Source: Nitrosomonadales bacterium (GTDB lineage Bacteria > Pseudomonadota > Gammaproteobacteria > Burkholderiales > Gallionellaceae). From it: a DNA stretch of 64,000 nucleotides. The notes beneath the pieces were generated by a model. It was not told where the DNA came from. It did not search any database and was given only the letters and a program-made list of their open reading frames with translations. The stretch is from assembly GCA_016208015.1 (NCBI GenBank), contig JACQYW010000015.1, forward strand, positions 43,903 through 107,902, given 5' to 3'. The first letter of the stretch is position 1; each line of letters begins with the position of its first letter. This document shows positions 22 to 10,015 of this stretch, piece after piece. The position numbers and the translations under genes are program-made.

Positions 22-417
22 TTACCACTCTTGCGGCAGCCGGTATCTTTCCGGCAACAGGTCGAGGATCTCGCGCTGCACCACGATGTTGTGCTCTTCG
101 TAGAGTGGCTTGCCGCACAACGGCATCTTTTCCTCAAAAGATTCCACGGCCTTCTCGCCCTGCCAGACCCAATCGACCGGGAGGCAGACATCGGGCATGC
201 GTTCGCTGGGGAACTCCGATTGCACGACCCCGATGGCCTTGATATGCAGGTCAGACAGTGAGGTGCAGTGTTTGATGAAAACGATGTCTTCCTTGTGGAA
301 GGGGGCGACGACGTAACGCAGATCCGTCTTGCCGTCCGCAGTGTGGGGCAGGCACACCGTATGCCTGTCGATGAAACCTTGCGCATCGCGCTCTTCGAAT
401 CCGAAAAAAGTGGCCAT
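22..417 (-). CDS. Hypothetical protein (~131 aa), downstream of and co-oriented with the cbb3 genes
   Basis: ORF 22..486; likely start at ATG 417 (MATFFGFEE). No family recognised. Confidence 0.55.
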   Translation of the reverse strand: MATFFGFEERDAQGFIDRHTVCLPHTADGKTDLRYVVAPFHKEDIVFIKHCTSLSDLHIKAIGVVQSEFPSERMPDVCLPVDWVWQGEKAVESFEEKMPLCGKPLYEEHNIVVQREILDLLPERYRLPQEW

Positions 418-458
418 GATGTCCTCTCTTTCTTTAACAGTTTTCCATCCCGTTTCCC

Positions 459-686
459 TCACATCGGGCCCACCGGGGCGCTCCAATAGGTGACGAGGTA
501 ATACACACCCCAGACCAGCAAGGAAACGACGACGAACCAGAGCCAGACCGGCACGTTGCCTTCGCGTTCCGTAATACCTGCACTGGCATAGTTGTAAACG
601 GCTTGCCCCTGCTCGTTAACAGATTGCTCGCCGGAATTCTTTCCGGTTCCAATGCCTGTATCGATCGGATTTTCAGTCATGGCCAT
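459..686 (-). CDS. 75-aa membrane peptide resembling the N-terminal (FixP_N) segment of cbb3 subunit CcoP
   Basis: YASAGITEREGNVPVWLWFVVVSLLVWGVYYL aligns by eye with the CcoP motif (W/Y)DGIxExDNPLPxWW plus a TM helix. Overlaps the stop of the upstream oxidase gene. Confidence 0.7.
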   Translation of the reverse strand: MAMTENPIDTGIGTGKNSGEQSVNEQGQAVYNYASAGITEREGNVPVWLWFVVVSLLVWGVYYLVTYWSAPVGPM

Positions 687-3600
687 CTTCCTTTCCCGGT
701 TTTGGCGGTGTCGATGACGGGTATCCCGGGACGGTCCACCTGCACTACCTGCGCATCGATCTGACCGTGATCAGCCGCCTCGGATAGCGAAGCCCAGATC
801 CTTGCGCGCGCATCCGCCAACTGCAATTTCGTGCCGGCCGCTTTCGCTTCCAGCGGCCCTCCCGCCGAGCAGAAGTTGATAATGGGCAATACCACGTTGC
901 TGCACGCGGCGAGCAGCCAGGGCACGCTGGAAGTGCAGAAGTTCGCGGCCTGTTCCGGTTCGGTCATCCCGGCTTGCTTCAGCGACGCGAGATGCGCATC
1001 CACCCGCAGTGACTGCATGTAATGCACGATGTCCCAGATCTGTTCCGGCGTGAACGTGCCCGCAAAGGCCGGCATGGGCGTGCCGCCGACGCCGGTCATG
1101 ATGGTCCTGTAGACATGACGTCCGTCGTGGCCAAGTTTGACACCACCCGGCGCTCCGGCGGGCAGGGTGAAGTTGGCGGGATTGACCGGGTTGCCCCACA
1201 TATCGGAAAAGACGCCCGCAGGCATGCCATCGCCGAGCCCGCCCAAGCCGTGGCAGGCGGCACAGATGGTGTCGAATTGCTGTTTGCCGCGCGCGATCGA
1301 ATCCACCGACACCGGCGGCTCATCGCCGACCGGCACGGGCGCACCGGGGCGCGCCGTTCTCCAGCGCGCAGAGAAGGTCTTGATGTACTGGATGACGGCA
1401 AGACGTTCCTGCACCGGAATGTCGAACCAGGACGGCATCGCGGTTCCCCACAGTCCGTGGCTGATCGTAACGAACAGGTCCCCGTCCGAGGGCAGCGAAT
1501 TCGCATCGCCCGCGGTCGAGCGGAACTTGAACGTGCCGGTCGTGAAATCGCGCGGTTTCGGGTTCATGAAACGGGCGGACGGACCGTTGCCGTCGCCTTT
1601 CTCGCCATGGCAACCAACGCAGCGGCGCAGGTAGACCTGCTTGCCGCGCGGCAGCAGATCCTGCATCGTTTCCGTGTAGCTCGACCGCAAAGCGGCCCCG
1701 GAGGTCAGTCGCGTCGACACGAAGGTCTCGCGCCAATCGCCGATCGAGGTGCCGAGTTTTTGCAGATAGGCAACCAGCGCCAGCCCGTCCTCGTTGAGTT
1801 GCGGAGCGGTCTTGCCGTCGCTGTCCTTGAACAACCAGGGGAAGCGCGGCATGACCGAATCCGGCACGACATCGCGCGGATTCCAGTGATGCGCGGCTTG
1901 CCAATCGTCGCCGTATTTCCCGCCGACGCGCAACAGGTCGGGGCCGATCCGCCGCGTGCTGAGCATCTGCGGCTGGTCGTACACATATTCACCCGCCTGC
2001 GAGACCGGTCCCCAGCGCAGGTTCTCTCCCGTCACCGGGCGCACATATTGCGAATGGCAATACCAGCAACCTTCGCGGATATAGACCTGCCTGCCCCTGC
2101 GTTCCTGCAGCGTGTAATCGGCGACCTGGATGATCTGTCCGCTGCTCGCGGAAACGACCGTGGGGTTGTAGGTCTGCGGCAGGATGGAAGGCAGGATGCC
2201 CTGGATCAGCACGGCCAGAAAGAAGAACGCGATACCGGCGACGATGAACACGCCGGAGGGGCGGCTGTACCAGGTCGCCCCGACTGCGGCAGGGCGCGCT
2301 TCGGAAACGGCCAGCAGCGCGCTATCCGCGATCATCTCGAACGGCACACCCTCGCGCGCCGTCATGACCAGATTGACCGCCATCAGGAGCAAGCCGAGAT
2401 CCATCGAGGCGCCCGCCAGCGTGCGCGCGAACCACCACGGTTTCATCTCGACCACCGAGTCGACGAAGTTCGCGCCGTATTCGAGCATGCTGCCCTGGAT
2501 GAAACCCTGCGCGGCCAGCCCCGCCAGCATGATCGTGGTGCCGGCGATGGTCAGCCACACATGCCAGCTCGCTAGCTTGGCGCTCCACAATCGGCGTCCG
2601 GTCACGCGCGGCCACACGTAATACATGCTGCCCACCGCCGCCAGCACGAAGGTGGCGAACACGGTGAAGTGCGAATGCGAGATGACGAAGTCGGTGAAGT
2701 GCGTGAGTTCCTGCACCCGGCGCAGCGCTTCGGTCGATCCCTGGAAGCAGCCGACCAGATAGAAGAAGGTCGCCAGCAGCAGGAACTTGGCCGCATAACT
2801 GTCCGCATCGTTGCCGCCCACGATGGCGCCCCAGCGCCCCCTGGCGGTGCCGAACAGGTTGGTGATCACCGCCCACACCGGGATGATGAGCATCATGCTG
2901 GTGACGATGGAGATGGTCTGGTTGTGATACGGAATGGGGCTGAACAGGTAGTGGTGCGTGCCGACGAAGGGATAGAAGAACGCCAGCGCCCAGAAGCCCA
3001 GCAACGACAAGCGATGGCTGTACAGCGGCGCTCTCGCGGCTAGCGGCAGGAAGTAATACATCAGCGCCAGCCCCGCAGGCGTGATCCACAGTCCGACCAC
3101 ATAGTGGATATAGAGTCCGTGCAAAGCGGCATTGCTGATGCCGGACATCGGCACATAAGGCAGCACGACATTGCCGAGGATCAGGTTCATCGCCGTCCAC
3201 ACCAGCGCCGCCAGCGTGTACCACAGCGCGACGTAGAAGCCTTTTTCCTTGCGCGTGAATATCGTCGCCAGGACCTGGTAGCCGATCGCAGCCAGGATGA
3301 TCCAGCGCAGGATATTGATCGGCCATTCATACTCGCCCGCCTCGAAACCGGTGTTGTACCCCATCATCAGGGAGAGGGAGCCGGCGACCAGAAAGAAATT
3401 CCAGCCCCACAGCAACGGCCATCCCCAATGTTCCTTGACCATGGGGCGACCGCACAATCGCGGCACCAGGTAATACAGCAGGCCGAGCACGGGCGTGGAG
3501 AATGCGCCGAAGATGACGCCGTTGACATGCACGGGTCGCAGGCGTCCGAACGTCAGCCACGACGTCTCACCGAGGAAATCCGGGAGATGGAATTTGATTG

Positions 3601-3769
3601 AGACGAGCAGGCCGACCAGCGGGAAAACAGACAGCCAGGCGAGCGACCACCACAGCCAGGCACGCACCAGATATTTGTTTACGAGTCCGGTTACATCGGG
3701 CGCTTGCGACAAACTATCCGCCGCGTTTGCATCCCAGGCATCCATGTTGCGCAATCGTTGGTCAGGCAT
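677..3769 (-). CDS. ccoNO: cbb3-type (C-family) cytochrome c oxidase: subunit I + subunit II + dihaem cytochrome c fusion
   Basis: CcoN motifs FGRLRPVHVN, HYVVG, FYPFVGTHH, HSHF. CcoO motifs GRQVYIREGCWYCHSQ, RRIGPDL, VPDSVMP. Further CVGCH and CAACH. RBS GGAGGAG precedes ATG 3769. Confidence 0.9.
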   Translation of the reverse strand: MPDQRLRNMDAWDANAADSLSQAPDVTGLVNKYLVRAWLWWSLAWLSVFPLVGLLVSIKFHLPDFLGETSWLTFGRLRPVHVNGVIFGAFSTPVLGLLYYLVPRLCGRPMVKEHWGWPLLWGWNFFLVAGSLSLMMGYNTGFEAGEYEWPINILRWIILAAIGYQVLATIFTRKEKGFYVALWYTLAALVWTAMNLILGNVVLPYVPMSGISNAALHGLYIHYVVGLWITPAGLALMYYFLPLAARAPLYSHRLSLLGFWALAFFYPFVGTHHYLFSPIPYHNQTISIVTSMMLIIPVWAVITNLFGTARGRWGAIVGGNDADSYAAKFLLLATFFYLVGCFQGSTEALRRVQELTHFTDFVISHSHFTVFATFVLAAVGSMYYVWPRVTGRRLWSAKLASWHVWLTIAGTTIMLAGLAAQGFIQGSMLEYGANFVDSVVEMKPWWFARTLAGASMDLGLLLMAVNLVMTAREGVPFEMIADSALLAVSEARPAAVGATWYSRPSGVFIVAGIAFFFLAVLIQGILPSILPQTYNPTVVSASSGQIIQVADYTLQERRGRQVYIREGCWYCHSQYVRPVTGENLRWGPVSQAGEYVYDQPQMLSTRRIGPDLLRVGGKYGDDWQAAHHWNPRDVVPDSVMPRFPWLFKDSDGKTAPQLNEDGLALVAYLQKLGTSIGDWRETFVSTRLTSGAALRSSYTETMQDLLPRGKQVYLRRCVGCHGEKGDGNGPSARFMNPKPRDFTTGTFKFRSTAGDANSLPSDGDLFVTISHGLWGTAMPSWFDIPVQERLAVIQYIKTFSARWRTARPGAPVPVGDEPPVSVDSIARGKQQFDTICAACHGLGGLGDGMPAGVFSDMWGNPVNPANFTLPAGAPGGVKLGHDGRHVYRTIMTGVGGTPMPAFAGTFTPEQIWDIVHYMQSLRVDAHLASLKQAGMTEPEQAANFCTSSVPWLLAACSNVVLPIINFCSAGGPLEAKAAGTKLQLADARARIWASLSEAADHGQIDAQVVQVDRPGIPVIDTAKTGKGRWP

Positions 3770-4121
3770 ATCTCCTCCCAACTTCGAACATCGTTATCAC
3801 CGCCCCGAGCGGTGGCGGCGGCGAACATGGGATTCGCCTGTCACTCAGTTATGCCATGCTGAACAACATCATTGAAAGGATATGGGGAAGGTGAGTAACC
3901 ACTCATCTGCCGGGCATGGCAACAGCGACTACCGGACTTCGCGGATGTTGTAGAAACCATCCAGAGTAGACATCCTAAGAAGCCGGATTATTTTTGTCAA
4001 CTATTGCGGCGTGACTCCATGCGGGAGTGACAGATATTGAGTTGTGAAGCAGTATCGATTTGGTGGGACGGCGCCTGTATATATGGTGTGGCAATCAGCA
4101 GAATCGCCCCGGCGATGTCGA

Positions 4122-5480
4122 TCAGTTGTGTTCATAAAAACGAACCCGATTCCGTCCAGCCTCCTTGGCTTGATACATGGCCGCATCGGACTGCTTGAGT
4201 ATCTCGTTATGGTTCGCGTCGCGGTTGATGAAGAGCGAAACGCCGATGCTCGATGTGCAGTGATGTTCTATCTGTGTTTCCTTGCGGTCTTCTGCTTCGG
4301 GATTCAGGAGATACGGCGCAGCAAGCGCGACGCGGATCTTCTCGGAGATGGCCATGGCCAAACCGGTGGCCTCGGTTTTTTCCTTGCTTAATTCGCTGAC
4401 CAGGACAACGAATTCATCGCCACCGATGCGCGCGACGGTATCGACTGCCCGCAGGCAGGAAGTGAGGCGGCGCGCGACTTCGACCAGCAGAAGATCGCCA
4501 ACGGCATGCCCGTGGCTGTCGTTGAGCGGCTTGAAGTTATCCAGATCGATGTACATCACGGCCCCGTAACGTTCGCTGCGCTTGCTCGCAGCCAGCGACT
4601 GGTTCAGCCGGTCATCCAGCAGGCGGCGGTTGGGAAGCTGCGTCAGGGGGTCGTGGAATGCGAGTTCTCGTACGAGCGCTTCCTGCTTCTTGCGTTCGGT
4701 GATGTCGAGGAAGGTGGCAATCGCTCCCACCACAACGTCATCCCGCAGAATGGGTTTCGACCAGTATTCCACCGGGATGGAAGTCCCGTCCTTGCGCCAG
4801 AACACTTCATCCGAGACATGGATGTCCTGATGGCGCTGATAAGCCGCATACATCCGGCATTCCGTGGCCGGATAGGGGCGGCCGTCCGCGTGCGAATGGT
4901 GTATGAGGCCGTGGATATGCTTGCCGATGATCTCTTTGGTGCTTTCAAACCCGAGAATCTGCATGAATGACTTGTTCACGAAGGTGCACATGCCATCGGT
5001 ATCCACGCCGTAAGCGCCCTCGGCCATCGAATTGAGCAGCAGATCCAGCTTCTCATGCGATTCGCGCAGATCGAATTCGGCCTGCTTGCGCCGGGTGACA
5101 TCGTCATAGATCGCGACGACTTCACCTGTTGGCAAACGATATACATAGTTCTCGCGCCAACCGGTGATCCGGCTGTCCTCGTAATAGCTGGCAGGGAAAT
5201 GCTGTGGCTGTCCGGTCTTCCAGACGCGCTTCAGAATGGGAAGAAAGCCGAACTCTTTTACTCCGGGGAAGCAATCCGTCAATCGTTTCCCGATGACCGC
5301 TTCGCGTTCCAGCTTATCCAGTACTTCGGCAGAGCGGTTGAAGTCCAGAAAGATGAAATCATCGCCGCCGTCTATCGCGGCATACACGGCCACACAACTG
5401 CTCATGTGCTGGAACAACTCGCGAAACAAGGCCTCGCTATAGGCGACGCGGTTCAATTCCGCTTCCTTGGGATTTTGCAT
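4122..5480 (-). CDS. PAS-PAS-GGDEF diguanylate cyclase
   Basis: Two PAS-like domains, HDPLTQLPNRR, RxxD I-site, intact GGDEF. Confidence 0.9.
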   Translation of the reverse strand: MQNPKEAELNRVAYSEALFRELFQHMSSCVAVYAAIDGGDDFIFLDFNRSAEVLDKLEREAVIGKRLTDCFPGVKEFGFLPILKRVWKTGQPQHFPASYYEDSRITGWRENYVYRLPTGEVVAIYDDVTRRKQAEFDLRESHEKLDLLLNSMAEGAYGVDTDGMCTFVNKSFMQILGFESTKEIIGKHIHGLIHHSHADGRPYPATECRMYAAYQRHQDIHVSDEVFWRKDGTSIPVEYWSKPILRDDVVVGAIATFLDITERKKQEALVRELAFHDPLTQLPNRRLLDDRLNQSLAASKRSERYGAVMYIDLDNFKPLNDSHGHAVGDLLLVEVARRLTSCLRAVDTVARIGGDEFVVLVSELSKEKTEATGLAMAISEKIRVALAAPYLLNPEAEDRKETQIEHHCTSSIGVSLFINRDANHNEILKQSDAAMYQAKEAGRNRVRFYEHN

Positions 5481-8659: not shown

Positions 8660-10015
8660 ATGCCAATGAACATGACCGAGCAGATAATGAGGCGTGGCGG
8701 TGCGCCACTTGATGTGGAGTTCCTGAAGAATGTTTTCGACCGATTGGTGGACAGCGTTTATTGGCTAAACCGGGAAGGGAGAGTTATATACGCCAACGAG
8801 GCAGCTTGCCGATCCCTGGAATGTACTTGCGAGGAGATGCTTGCATACAAGGTCCCGGATTTTGACCCAAATTTCAGCGAGAACTCATGGCTGACCCACT
8901 GGCAGAAAGTGAAGGCTCTCGGTTCGTTCACAATGCAAACGCTGCACCTTTCAAAGAGCGGGCGGATATTCCCTGTAGAAGTGTCCATCAATTATTTTGT
9001 GTATGGCAAAAACGAGTTTGACTGCGTCATTGCAAGAGATATTTCTGCGCGCAACCATCTGGAAGGATCCATGAGTTTTGCAGCGGATATCTTCCGAATG
9101 AGCAATGAAGCCATCATGGTGACCGATGACAACAATCATATTGTCGAAGTGAATCAGGCGTTCGAGCGGATAACCGGATATACCCTTGATGAATTATTTG
9201 GGAAGAACCCCAGCATCCTTCAGTCCGAGATACATGACTTGGCGTTCTATCTGAAGATGTGGCATGAAATCAGAAGTAATGGGACATGGCAGGGCGAAGT
9301 TTGCGGCCGTCGCAAGAATGGTGAGATCTTCGTCACATGGATCACCTTCAGTCTTATCAGGCATAAAGATGGCAGTGTGTTCCGGCATGTCGCGCAATTT
9401 ACAGATATCACTGAGAAGAAAAAGAGGGAAGAAGAAGTTTGGCAGCATGCCAACTTTCACTCTTTGACCAATCTTCCAAACCGACGCCTGTTTGTTGATC
9501 GTCTTGAACAGGAAATCAAGAAAGCAAACCGGGCGGAGCATCAACTGACGCTGTTGTTCATTGACCTCGATGAATTCAAGCGGATCAACGATCAGTTTGG
9601 CCATGAGAAGGGAGACCGGCTTTTGGTGGAGGCGGCGCGGCGTATTGGCCTATGCGTACGAGAAACAGATACGGTGGCACACATCGGAGGAGATGAATTT
9701 ACCGTTATCTTGCCAAAGTTGGGCAGGAGTCCGGATGTTGCGCGCATCGCGCAAGCCATTGTTCACGAACTGGGCGGCCCTTTCGAGCTGGGTGAAAATA
9801 CCGGTTTTGTTTCTGCGAGTGTCGGAATCGCACTTTATCCGGCAGATGCACAGAATGTACTTGGCCTGTTGAATTGCGCCGATCGTGCAATGTACGAAGC
9901 AAAGAAAAATGGACGAAACTGTTATGCCTATTTCTCTGATTCTGCGAATCCGGACAATGCCCACAGTTCATATGAAAAGCGAAGGTCGATTTACTTGCAG
10001 CGGGAAGAGCCGTAA
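8660..10015 (+). CDS. PAS-PAS-GGDEF diguanylate cyclase
   Basis: Two PAS domains, LTNLPNRR, RETD I-site, GGDEF. Confidence 0.9.
   Translation: MPMNMTEQIMRRGGAPLDVEFLKNVFDRLVDSVYWLNREGRVIYANEAACRSLECTCEEMLAYKVPDFDPNFSENSWLTHWQKVKALGSFTMQTLHLSKSGRIFPVEVSINYFVYGKNEFDCVIARDISARNHLEGSMSFAADIFRMSNEAIMVTDDNNHIVEVNQAFERITGYTLDELFGKNPSILQSEIHDLAFYLKMWHEIRSNGTWQGEVCGRRKNGEIFVTWITFSLIRHKDGSVFRHVAQFTDITEKKKREEEVWQHANFHSLTNLPNRRLFVDRLEQEIKKANRAEHQLTLLFIDLDEFKRINDQFGHEKGDRLLVEAARRIGLCVRETDTVAHIGGDEFTVILPKLGRSPDVARIAQAIVHELGGPFELGENTGFVSASVGIALYPADAQNVLGLLNCADRAMYEAKKNGRNCYAYFSDSANPDNAHSSYEKRRSIYLQREEP

Follow-up and report, generated by a model that had tools for sequence, protein, structure and literature searches.

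A two-gene locus in a Gallionellaceae genome that probably encodes a Nitrospina-type, cbb3-like oxygen reductase

In 2013, Lücker et al. reported a fused cbb3-type terminal oxidase from Nitrospina gracilis (PMC3578206). In their description, a single gene encodes subunits I and II together with a di-haem part, the product has 13 transmembrane helices and haem c sites in a one-plus-two arrangement, and helix VI has Gly instead of Trp at position 203, an additional His at position 202, and His207 standing between Tyr205 and Tyr208. The same fusion has been reported in other Nitrospinia, with an unfused version in class UBA7883 (PMC10839748), and similar enzymes have been named 'cbb3' in Nitrospira marina, Ca. 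Nitronereus thalassa and Ca. Manganitrophus. In N. marina, O2 limitation (~5.6 uM O2) went along with a 3.6-fold higher abundance of its cbb3 oxidase, an enzyme described as 'highly similar' to that of N. gracilis (PMC8115632). Here, a related locus is analysed that lies at 459..3769 on the minus strand of a stretch of 64,000 nucleotides from a Nitrosomonadales bacterium of the Gallionellaceae (GenBank assembly GCA_016208015.1, contig JACQYW010000015.1, positions 43,903 to 107,902), hereafter called the window, to which all coordinates refer unless another locus is named. With a probability of about 80%, it is read as a two-gene operon encoding a two-subunit, Nitrospina-type O2 reductase of the C family (cbb3-like), whose features are collected in Table 1.

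Table 1. Window coordinates of the oxidase locus, of the modules within the large protein and of the upstream promoter match
Feature	Window position	Strand	Basis
Fused oxidase gene, 1030 amino acids plus stop (CcoN-like, then CcoO-like, then di-haem cytochrome c)	677..3769	-	Open reading frame and translation; Pfam and NCBIfam scans
CcoN-like domain, residues 1-480, 12 transmembrane helices	2330..3769	-	3mk7_A alignment; hydropathy; AlphaFold2 helices 32-473; Foldseek
CcoO-like module, residues 500-684	1718..2272	-	Pfam FixO; PDB CcoO chains at E ~1e-35; invariant columns
Di-haem cytochrome c module, residues 685-930	980..1717	-	Profile search and Foldseek to 6h5l_B
C-terminal tail, residues 931-1030	680..979	-	Alignment; AlphaFold2 helices 950-967 and 984-995
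Small gene, 75 amino acids (73 from the second ATG at 680)	459..686	-	One transmembrane helix, no haem motif, FixP_N-like
Sigma-70-like promoter match TTGACA-17-TAGGAT	3972..4000	-	Consensus scan, 10/12; consensus match only

The large gene starts with an ATG at 3769, just 5′ of which stands GGGAGGAG, and continues with zero internal stops over 1030 amino acids to a TGA at 679-677. The Pfam models matched in the encoded protein were COX1 (residues 35-453, 243 bits), FixO (residues 515-650, 153 bits) and two cytochrome c domains, in that order, and 13 transmembrane helices were obtained from hydropathy and from an AlphaFold2 model (mean pLDDT 76.9, pTM 0.76), with 12 of them in the N-terminal part and the 13th at ~504-528. 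An earlier note on this DNA, made from the letters alone, had described a single uninterrupted frame in this three-part order with haem motifs at 2054-2068 (CWYCH), 1607-1621 (CVGCH) and 1250-1264 (CAACH), and both the positions and the order are borne out, the latter also by the domain scan that it had proposed as a check. Moreover, the note had raised the possibility of a stop between the domains, in which case the fusion would be a missed stop or a frameshift from metagenome assembly, or else a decaying pseudogene. The source is a metagenome-assembled genome, and no point in favour of such an artefact was found. Against it, window positions 400-3900 (3501 bases) were compared with contigs of four groundwater metagenome runs and showed 0 substitutions and 0 indels, these runs being four samples from one study, with a word depth of 15-32, and the window itself possibly deriving from one of them. 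Furthermore, the identical 1030-residue protein is on record on 5 contigs, and a single continuous frame with all ligands is present in >60 orthologous loci from several phyla. An assembly artefact is excluded, its remaining probability being negligible.

A word-indexed protein search with the window protein yielded 1130 matches at E <= 0.001. The best 120 of these 1130 proteins had the same domain set throughout, with lengths of 781-1034 amino acids (most >940) and identities of 60-84%. The same search showed a homologue of 944 amino acids in Ferrigenium kumadai An22. Relatives were present in 418 genomes when one genome per prokaryotic species was scanned, and the locus counts given below refer to the best 80 of these family-bearing genomes. 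The earlier note had considered the appended di-haem module unusual, unless this architecture turned out to be the already characterised norm of the clade. Since it was published in 2013 for N. gracilis (PMC3578206) and is widespread, the architecture is not unusual, and the proviso that the note had attached to its own claim applies.

The CcoN-like domain was aligned with P. stutzeri CcoN (3mk7_A), and the whole ligand set was recovered, comprising two His for haem b, one for haem b3 and three for CuB. In particular, H60, H207, H257/H258 and H345/H347 of P. stutzeri correspond to H81, H222, H272/H273 and H365/H367 of the window protein, Y251 corresponds to Y266, and the Ca-site residue E122 to E143. 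The ligands, the Tyr and the Ca-site Glu were invariant in 52 family members, with the exception of H81, which was at least 90% conserved. The Tyr lies on helix VII within the motif FYPFVGTHH (residues 265-273), which the earlier note had pointed out in the window, and Y266-x5-H272-H273 is invariant across these 52 sequences; the Tyr stands at the cross-link position, where it would be joined covalently to the helix-VI His. In a phmmer search of the PDB, CcoN chains were matched at E 1e-58 to 1e-60, and no chain of a nitric oxide reductase (NOR) appeared among the matches at E <= 0.001. The fold of the AlphaFold2 model was also closer to CcoN chains (Foldseek TMt 0.88-0.90) than to cNOR NorB (0.82-0.83). 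The ligands, the Tyr, the Ca-site Glu and the matches to known sequences and folds thus agree on a haem-copper enzyme of the C family, as the earlier note had proposed.

The CcoO-like module begins with the transmembrane helix at ~504-528, which is followed by a mono-haem c domain with CWYCH at residues 568-572 and, as the site of the Met ligand, an invariant M640-P641. Its FixO score exceeds by far the Pfam gathering score of 29.6, and the anchor and the mono-haem domain characteristic of CcoO are both present, with a score of 139 on the NCBIfam ccoO model (cut-off 200). In the di-haem module, CVGCH (residues 717-721) is paired with M778-P779, and CAACH (residues 836-840) with M899-P900. No transmembrane helix was found between this module and the CcoO domain by hydropathy or AlphaFold2. 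A conserved Met-Pro motif accompanies each of the three haem c sites, and the di-haem pair is consistent with His/Met ligation. When the PDB was searched with a profile of the di-haem module, chain 6h5l_B was matched at E 1.6e-52, with 38% identity and an alignment covering residues 5-218 of its 226, and Foldseek superposed the module on the same chain with a TMt of 0.88 and a root-mean-square deviation of 2.2 Å. In contrast, CcoP chains matched the profile at E 1e-7 to 1e-10 in the CxxCH surroundings only, which is the level of unrelated class-I cytochromes, and the ccoP model scored 35-38 bits versus a cut-off of 180. An assignment of this part as a CcoP domain was rejected, as BLASTP against the genome's own CcoP gave E 6e-4, likewise in the CxxCH surroundings only. 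Furthermore, no single protein of this locus unites a FixP_N anchor with two CcoP-type haem c domains. By its profile matches and its modelled fold, the di-haem electron-entry module seen by the earlier note is a Kustc0457-type di-haem cytochrome and not a CcoP orthologue.

Neighbouring open reading frames were clustered over the 80 loci, and one strongly conserved partner emerged, which was a small same-strand frame directly downstream of the oxidase gene. A hidden Markov model built from these frames found the small gene in 78 of the 80 loci, which belong to several phyla; at the other two, the contig ends at most 58 bases from the oxidase gene. The small gene accompanies the one-gene form of the oxidase as well as the two-gene form, in which CcoN is a separate protein. 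In the window, its second ATG (680-678) overlaps the oxidase TGA (679-677) as ATGA and is preceded by a Shine-Dalgarno-like run, AAGGAAG. The consensus of the small protein is Y.Y..AGI.ER.G.VP.WL..V...L..WG.YYL..YW, with a conserved Glu that is E41 in the GITEREG of the window, and its label in public databases is 'hypothetical protein'. Among 26 orthologues, 22 had Pfam FixP_N as their top match (best E 2e-5), with all scores under the Pfam gathering score, and positions 16-52 of the NCBIfam ccoP model matched the small protein at E 7.8e-5. The overlap and these matches suggest that the small gene is a translationally coupled gene for a second subunit, a FixP_N-like anchor corresponding to the N-terminus of CcoP.

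This bears on the alternative that one polypeptide (CcoN-CcoO-CcoP) makes up the whole cbb3 oxidase and requires no other subunit, in line with the self-contained enzyme of the earlier note. All the redox sites of a canonical cbb3 oxidase (two haems b, CuB and three haems c) are indeed placed on one chain of 1030 residues, which speaks for that alternative. However, the coupled FixP_N-like gene occurs with the one-gene and two-gene forms alike, at every related locus with enough sequence, and the di-haem module is not CcoP-like. A self-contained oxidase is accordingly improbable, and the enzyme is most probably not one polypeptide, in view of its universal, translationally coupled small gene. 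Under the preferred two-subunit reading, the parts are, as judged from the alignments, rearranged with respect to canonical cbb3, the CcoP-type anchor being kept as a mini-protein and another di-haem cytochrome being placed on the C-terminus of CcoO.

Several observations weigh against a two-subunit, cbb3-like O2 reductase. Helix VI of the window protein (L-H-G-L-Y-I-H-Y-V-V-G-L-W, with HYVVGL at residues 222-227) was compared with that of canonical representatives, which reads QWWYGHNAVGFF, and it differs, as the earlier note had observed by comparison with the usual HNAVGF. In particular, the canonical feature WWYGHNAVGF is replaced by LHGLYIHYVVGLW, in which the residues are H217-G218-L-Y220-I-H222-Y223 and Gly218 stands for Trp203, and the FEGP of canonical helix IX is replaced by FQGS, in which Gln343 stands for Glu323. 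Both Trp203 and Glu323 are conserved in canonical CcoN and replaced throughout this family, and therefore the handling of electrons and protons at the active site may differ; the roles of the two residues are taken here from PMC3578206 and from general background. On the ccoN equivalog model TIGR00780, the window protein scored 244.8 bits, below the cut-off of 583.15, while the canonical ccoN of the same genome scored 670.3 bits. On these scores the catalytic domain is a divergent subfamily and not a ccoN equivalog. With respect to the small protein, its best FixP_N score was 21.6 bits versus the gathering score of 24.9, and hhalign of the small-subunit alignment with the genome's own CcoP placed it correctly (residues 23-54) but with a probability of 10.9% (E 0.0028). 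Moreover, no RNA runs holding the sequence were found for the organism, as the matches came only from DNA metagenomes, and no biochemical characterisation of the subfamily was found in the searchable literature, in which no member has been purified or assayed.

Some of these points would also fit an NO reductase or a dual NO/O2 reductase, in which Gly at position 203 and Gln at position 323 would reflect another substrate and a lack of proton pumping. The CcoN score far under the cbb3 equivalog cut-off and the family-wide replacement of Trp203 and Glu323 favour this explanation, to which it may be added that several host lineages handle nitrogen oxides and that canonical cbb3 oxidases are reported to have some NO reductase activity. 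Against it, Tyr is invariant at the cross-link position of helix VII, and helix VI of the window protein (HYVVGLW) has no Glu, in a check limited to helix VI among the FeB-site Glu positions, whereas helix VI of cNOR reads HLWVEG, with a Glu. Both the sequence and the fold are nearer to CcoN than to NorB, and a divergent haem-copper locus elsewhere in the genome could serve as NOR. In addition, the cbb3 oxidase of N. marina, said to be highly similar to that of N. gracilis, was raised under O2 limitation (PMC8115632). An NO-reducing enzyme is thus unlikely, and O2 is the most likely substrate.

In the proposed O2 reductase, the CcoN-like domain, with its 12 transmembrane helices and the Tyr position for the cross-link, would hold haem b and the haem b3-CuB centre. 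The 13th helix would take the chain to the periplasm, where the chain would form the CcoO-like mono-haem c domain, followed, without further membrane pass, by the Kustc0457-type di-haem cytochrome c. Welding a di-haem cytochrome onto the C-terminus of CcoO would pose little topological difficulty, since this end lies in the periplasm already. A periplasmic high-potential cytochrome would hand electrons to the two distal haems c, from which they would pass to the haem c of the CcoO domain, to haem b and finally to haem b3-CuB, where O2 would be reduced to water. The single transmembrane helix of the small subunit would, like the CcoP anchor of canonical cbb3, pack against the CcoN domain, and the fused enzyme would supplement the canonical ccoNOQP oxidase in its Gallionellaceae host. 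As the earlier note had suggested, the fused oxidase might have a high affinity for O2 and a divergent electron donor.

The hosts of the best 80 loci were Gallionellaceae and other Betaproteobacteria, Nitrospirota including Manganitrophaceae, Nitrospinota, Chromatiaceae, Thiohalomonadaceae and Zetaproteobacteria, together with a few Binatia, Methylomirabilota, Tectomicrobia, Gemmatimonadota and Alphaproteobacteria. From 107 N domains, a maximum-likelihood tree was built (quick search, SH-aLRT support) and rooted on the divergent third haem-copper subunit I of the genome, whose type is unassigned. In this tree, which provides the phylogeny of the CcoN part that the earlier note had called for, the family sits among other C-family sequences, and all the sequences with the helix VI motif H-G-x-Y-x-H-Y form one clade, well separate from that of canonical CcoN. 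Within this clade, the one-gene and the two-gene sequences make up separate groups. The window protein clusters in the one-gene group, which contains sequences from Manganitrophaceae, Nitrospira, Nitrospina and Proteobacteria, its core having an SH-aLRT support of 99%, and the proteobacterial copies nest beside those of Nitrospira and Nitrospina. The two-gene group is its sister clade (100% SH-aLRT) and presents a ccoN of 455-489 amino acids and, directly after it, a ccoO-di-haem fusion (546-605 amino acids, three CxxCH motifs), its hosts including Tectomicrobia, Methylomirabilota, Geminicoccaceae, Hyphomicrobiales and Nitrospinota UBA7883. One Binatia sequence lies inside the two-gene group and is independently fused. 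Since the two-gene group also has the fusion of CcoO with the di-haem module, this fusion is older and the joining of CcoN to CcoO came later. Apart from this clade, two distant C-family proteins, P0144 (947 amino acids) and P0155 (897 amino acids), are also tri-haem fusions of CcoN, CcoO and di-haem parts, with 35% identity in the N domain and another helix VI; as they belong to distant lineages, such a fusion arose several times.

The C-terminal tail of the large protein contains a Cys-rich hydrophobic insertion of 44 amino acids (residues ~941-984, window 818-949, minus strand), found only in the Gallionellaceae-type subclade. Its sequence, F-C-TSSVPWLLAA-C-SNVVLPIINF-C-SAGG, has three conserved Cys with the spacing C-x11-C-x10-C, and a helix was predicted by AlphaFold2 at residues 950-967. 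It is followed by a conserved helix with R988, W992, S996 and A999. A membrane-dipping element, a disulfide and a metal site are all possibilities for this insertion.

A canonical cbb3 cluster was found in the same genome (G000, contig C1, locus L005, 5330-13652), arranged as ccoNOQP-ccoG-ccoI-type ATPase. Its ccoN scored 670 bits, its ccoO is unusually long (270 amino acids), ccoQ, ccoP, ccoG and a gene for a ccoI-type Cu ATPase come after, and a frame of 65 amino acids at the end of the cluster is assigned as ccoS by position only. At the fused gene, no adjoining ccoQ or assembly genes (ccoGHIS) were found, and the ccoQ, ccoG, ccoI-type ATPase gene and ccoS-position frame of the canonical operon could serve both enzymes. 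Within the Gallionellaceae, the fused gene was present in 20 of 201 genomes and in 5 of 18 genera, and the genome analysed here also has the canonical ccoNOQP; therefore, the fused enzyme is a patchy extra oxidase rather than the norm of this clade. In this genome it is an accessory enzyme and was probably laterally acquired. A third haem-copper locus is located on another contig (C9, locus L006, 4845-7337) and encodes a cytochrome c of 141 amino acids, a subunit I of 463 amino acids and a subunit-III-like protein of 222 amino acids. Its subunit I is very divergent (38 bits on the ccoN model), and the locus may belong to a recently described NOR family.

The promoter match listed in Table 1 lies ~200 nt 5′ of the oxidase start codon. 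No FNR/Anr box (TTGAT-N4-ATCAA, at most two mismatches) was found in the intergenic region 3770-4121, and none was found upstream of the canonical ccoN by the same scan, so that no regulatory inference can be drawn from its absence at the fused gene. Two genes for PAS-PAS-GGDEF diguanylate cyclases flank the region at 4122-5480 (minus strand) and 8660-10015 (plus strand), and a PAS-GGDEF-EAL gene is found farther downstream of the oxidase (locus L004, 4014-5837). The upstream PAS-GGDEF gene was considered as a conserved partner and rejected, as it is absent from the main neighbour clusters of the related loci, among which no conserved upstream gene was found for the 80 loci. Moreover, an RND efflux pair, consisting of a membrane-fusion protein and an AcrB-like pump of 1040 amino acids, lies downstream, outside the low end of the window (L004, 9558-14021), and its synteny is restricted to ~7 closely related Gallionellaceae loci.

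As a more tentative proposal, which is more doubtful than probable, the H-G-x-Y-x-H-Y subfamily might be a functionally distinct oxidase, with Trp203 and Glu323 replaced, a Kustc0457-type wire on CcoO and the anchor as an obligatory mini-subunit. Most hosts of the best 80 loci oxidise nitrite, Fe(II) or Mn(II), which suggests that the enzyme is tuned to very high-potential periplasmic donors, perhaps with an altered proton-pumping stoichiometry. If the subfamily were distinct in this way, the universal retention of the FixP_N-like helix would point to this helix, and not the haem domains, as the indispensable part of CcoP. A possible reason would be that this helix forms the entrance of a proton channel, where a Glu of CcoP may be located, although a literature search gave no support for this. 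With respect to the searchable literature, the new elements are the constant pairing of the oxidase with a CcoP-anchor-like mini-protein labelled 'hypothetical', the kinship of the di-haem entry module with an anammox di-haem cytochrome instead of CcoP, the placement of the one-gene form within a clade that also holds the two-gene form, and its patchy occurrence in Gallionellaceae as an additional oxidase that was probably acquired laterally. In genome papers on important oxidisers of nitrite, iron and manganese, the protein is regularly labelled a 'canonical high-affinity cbb3'. As its affinity and proton pumping are inferred and two CcoN residues are changed, its characterisation would affect models of low-oxygen nitrification and iron oxidation.

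When compared with canonical cbb3 oxidase (P. stutzeri, PDB 3MK7/5DJQ), to which its identity is ~30% in a structure-based Foldseek alignment, the window enzyme has the same catalytic fold (TMt 0.90), with the ligands, the Tyr position and the Ca-site Glu kept, and the two enzymes also have in common a mono-haem domain of CcoO type, a total of three haems c and a FixP_N-type transmembrane helix. In contrast to the canonical enzyme, CcoN and CcoO are fused, the anchor is a separate protein of 75 amino acids, no ccoQ lies next to the fused gene, the di-haem part belongs to another cytochrome family and is attached to the C-terminus of CcoO, and Trp203 and Glu323 are Gly and Gln, respectively. 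The whole di-haem module aligns with Kustc0457 of Kuenenia stuttgartiensis (PDB 6H5L, chain B), which is free-standing and bound to the octahaem HAO-like protein Kustc0458, whereas in the fused enzyme it is a C-terminal extension of the CcoO domain. The two-gene form shares the helix VI motif, the CcoO-di-haem fusion and the small downstream gene, and differs in having CcoN as a separate protein. Closest of all is the Nitrospina gracilis type, all of whose described features are present in the window, namely the same helix VI (H202, G203, Y205, H207 and Y208 in P. stutzeri numbering), the 13 transmembrane helices and the one plus two haem c sites. Full-length identities were 59-63% to two Nitrospina loci (L049 and L070) and 59-64% to the Nitrospina and Nitrospira copies overall. 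The differences are that the host belongs to an iron-oxidiser lineage that also has a canonical ccoNOQP, and that its subclade carries the insertion of 44 amino acids; moreover, the passages of PMC3578206 examined here mention neither a small downstream subunit nor the non-CcoP nature of the di-haem part. The window enzyme is a new member of this known, biochemically uncharacterised oxidase subfamily.

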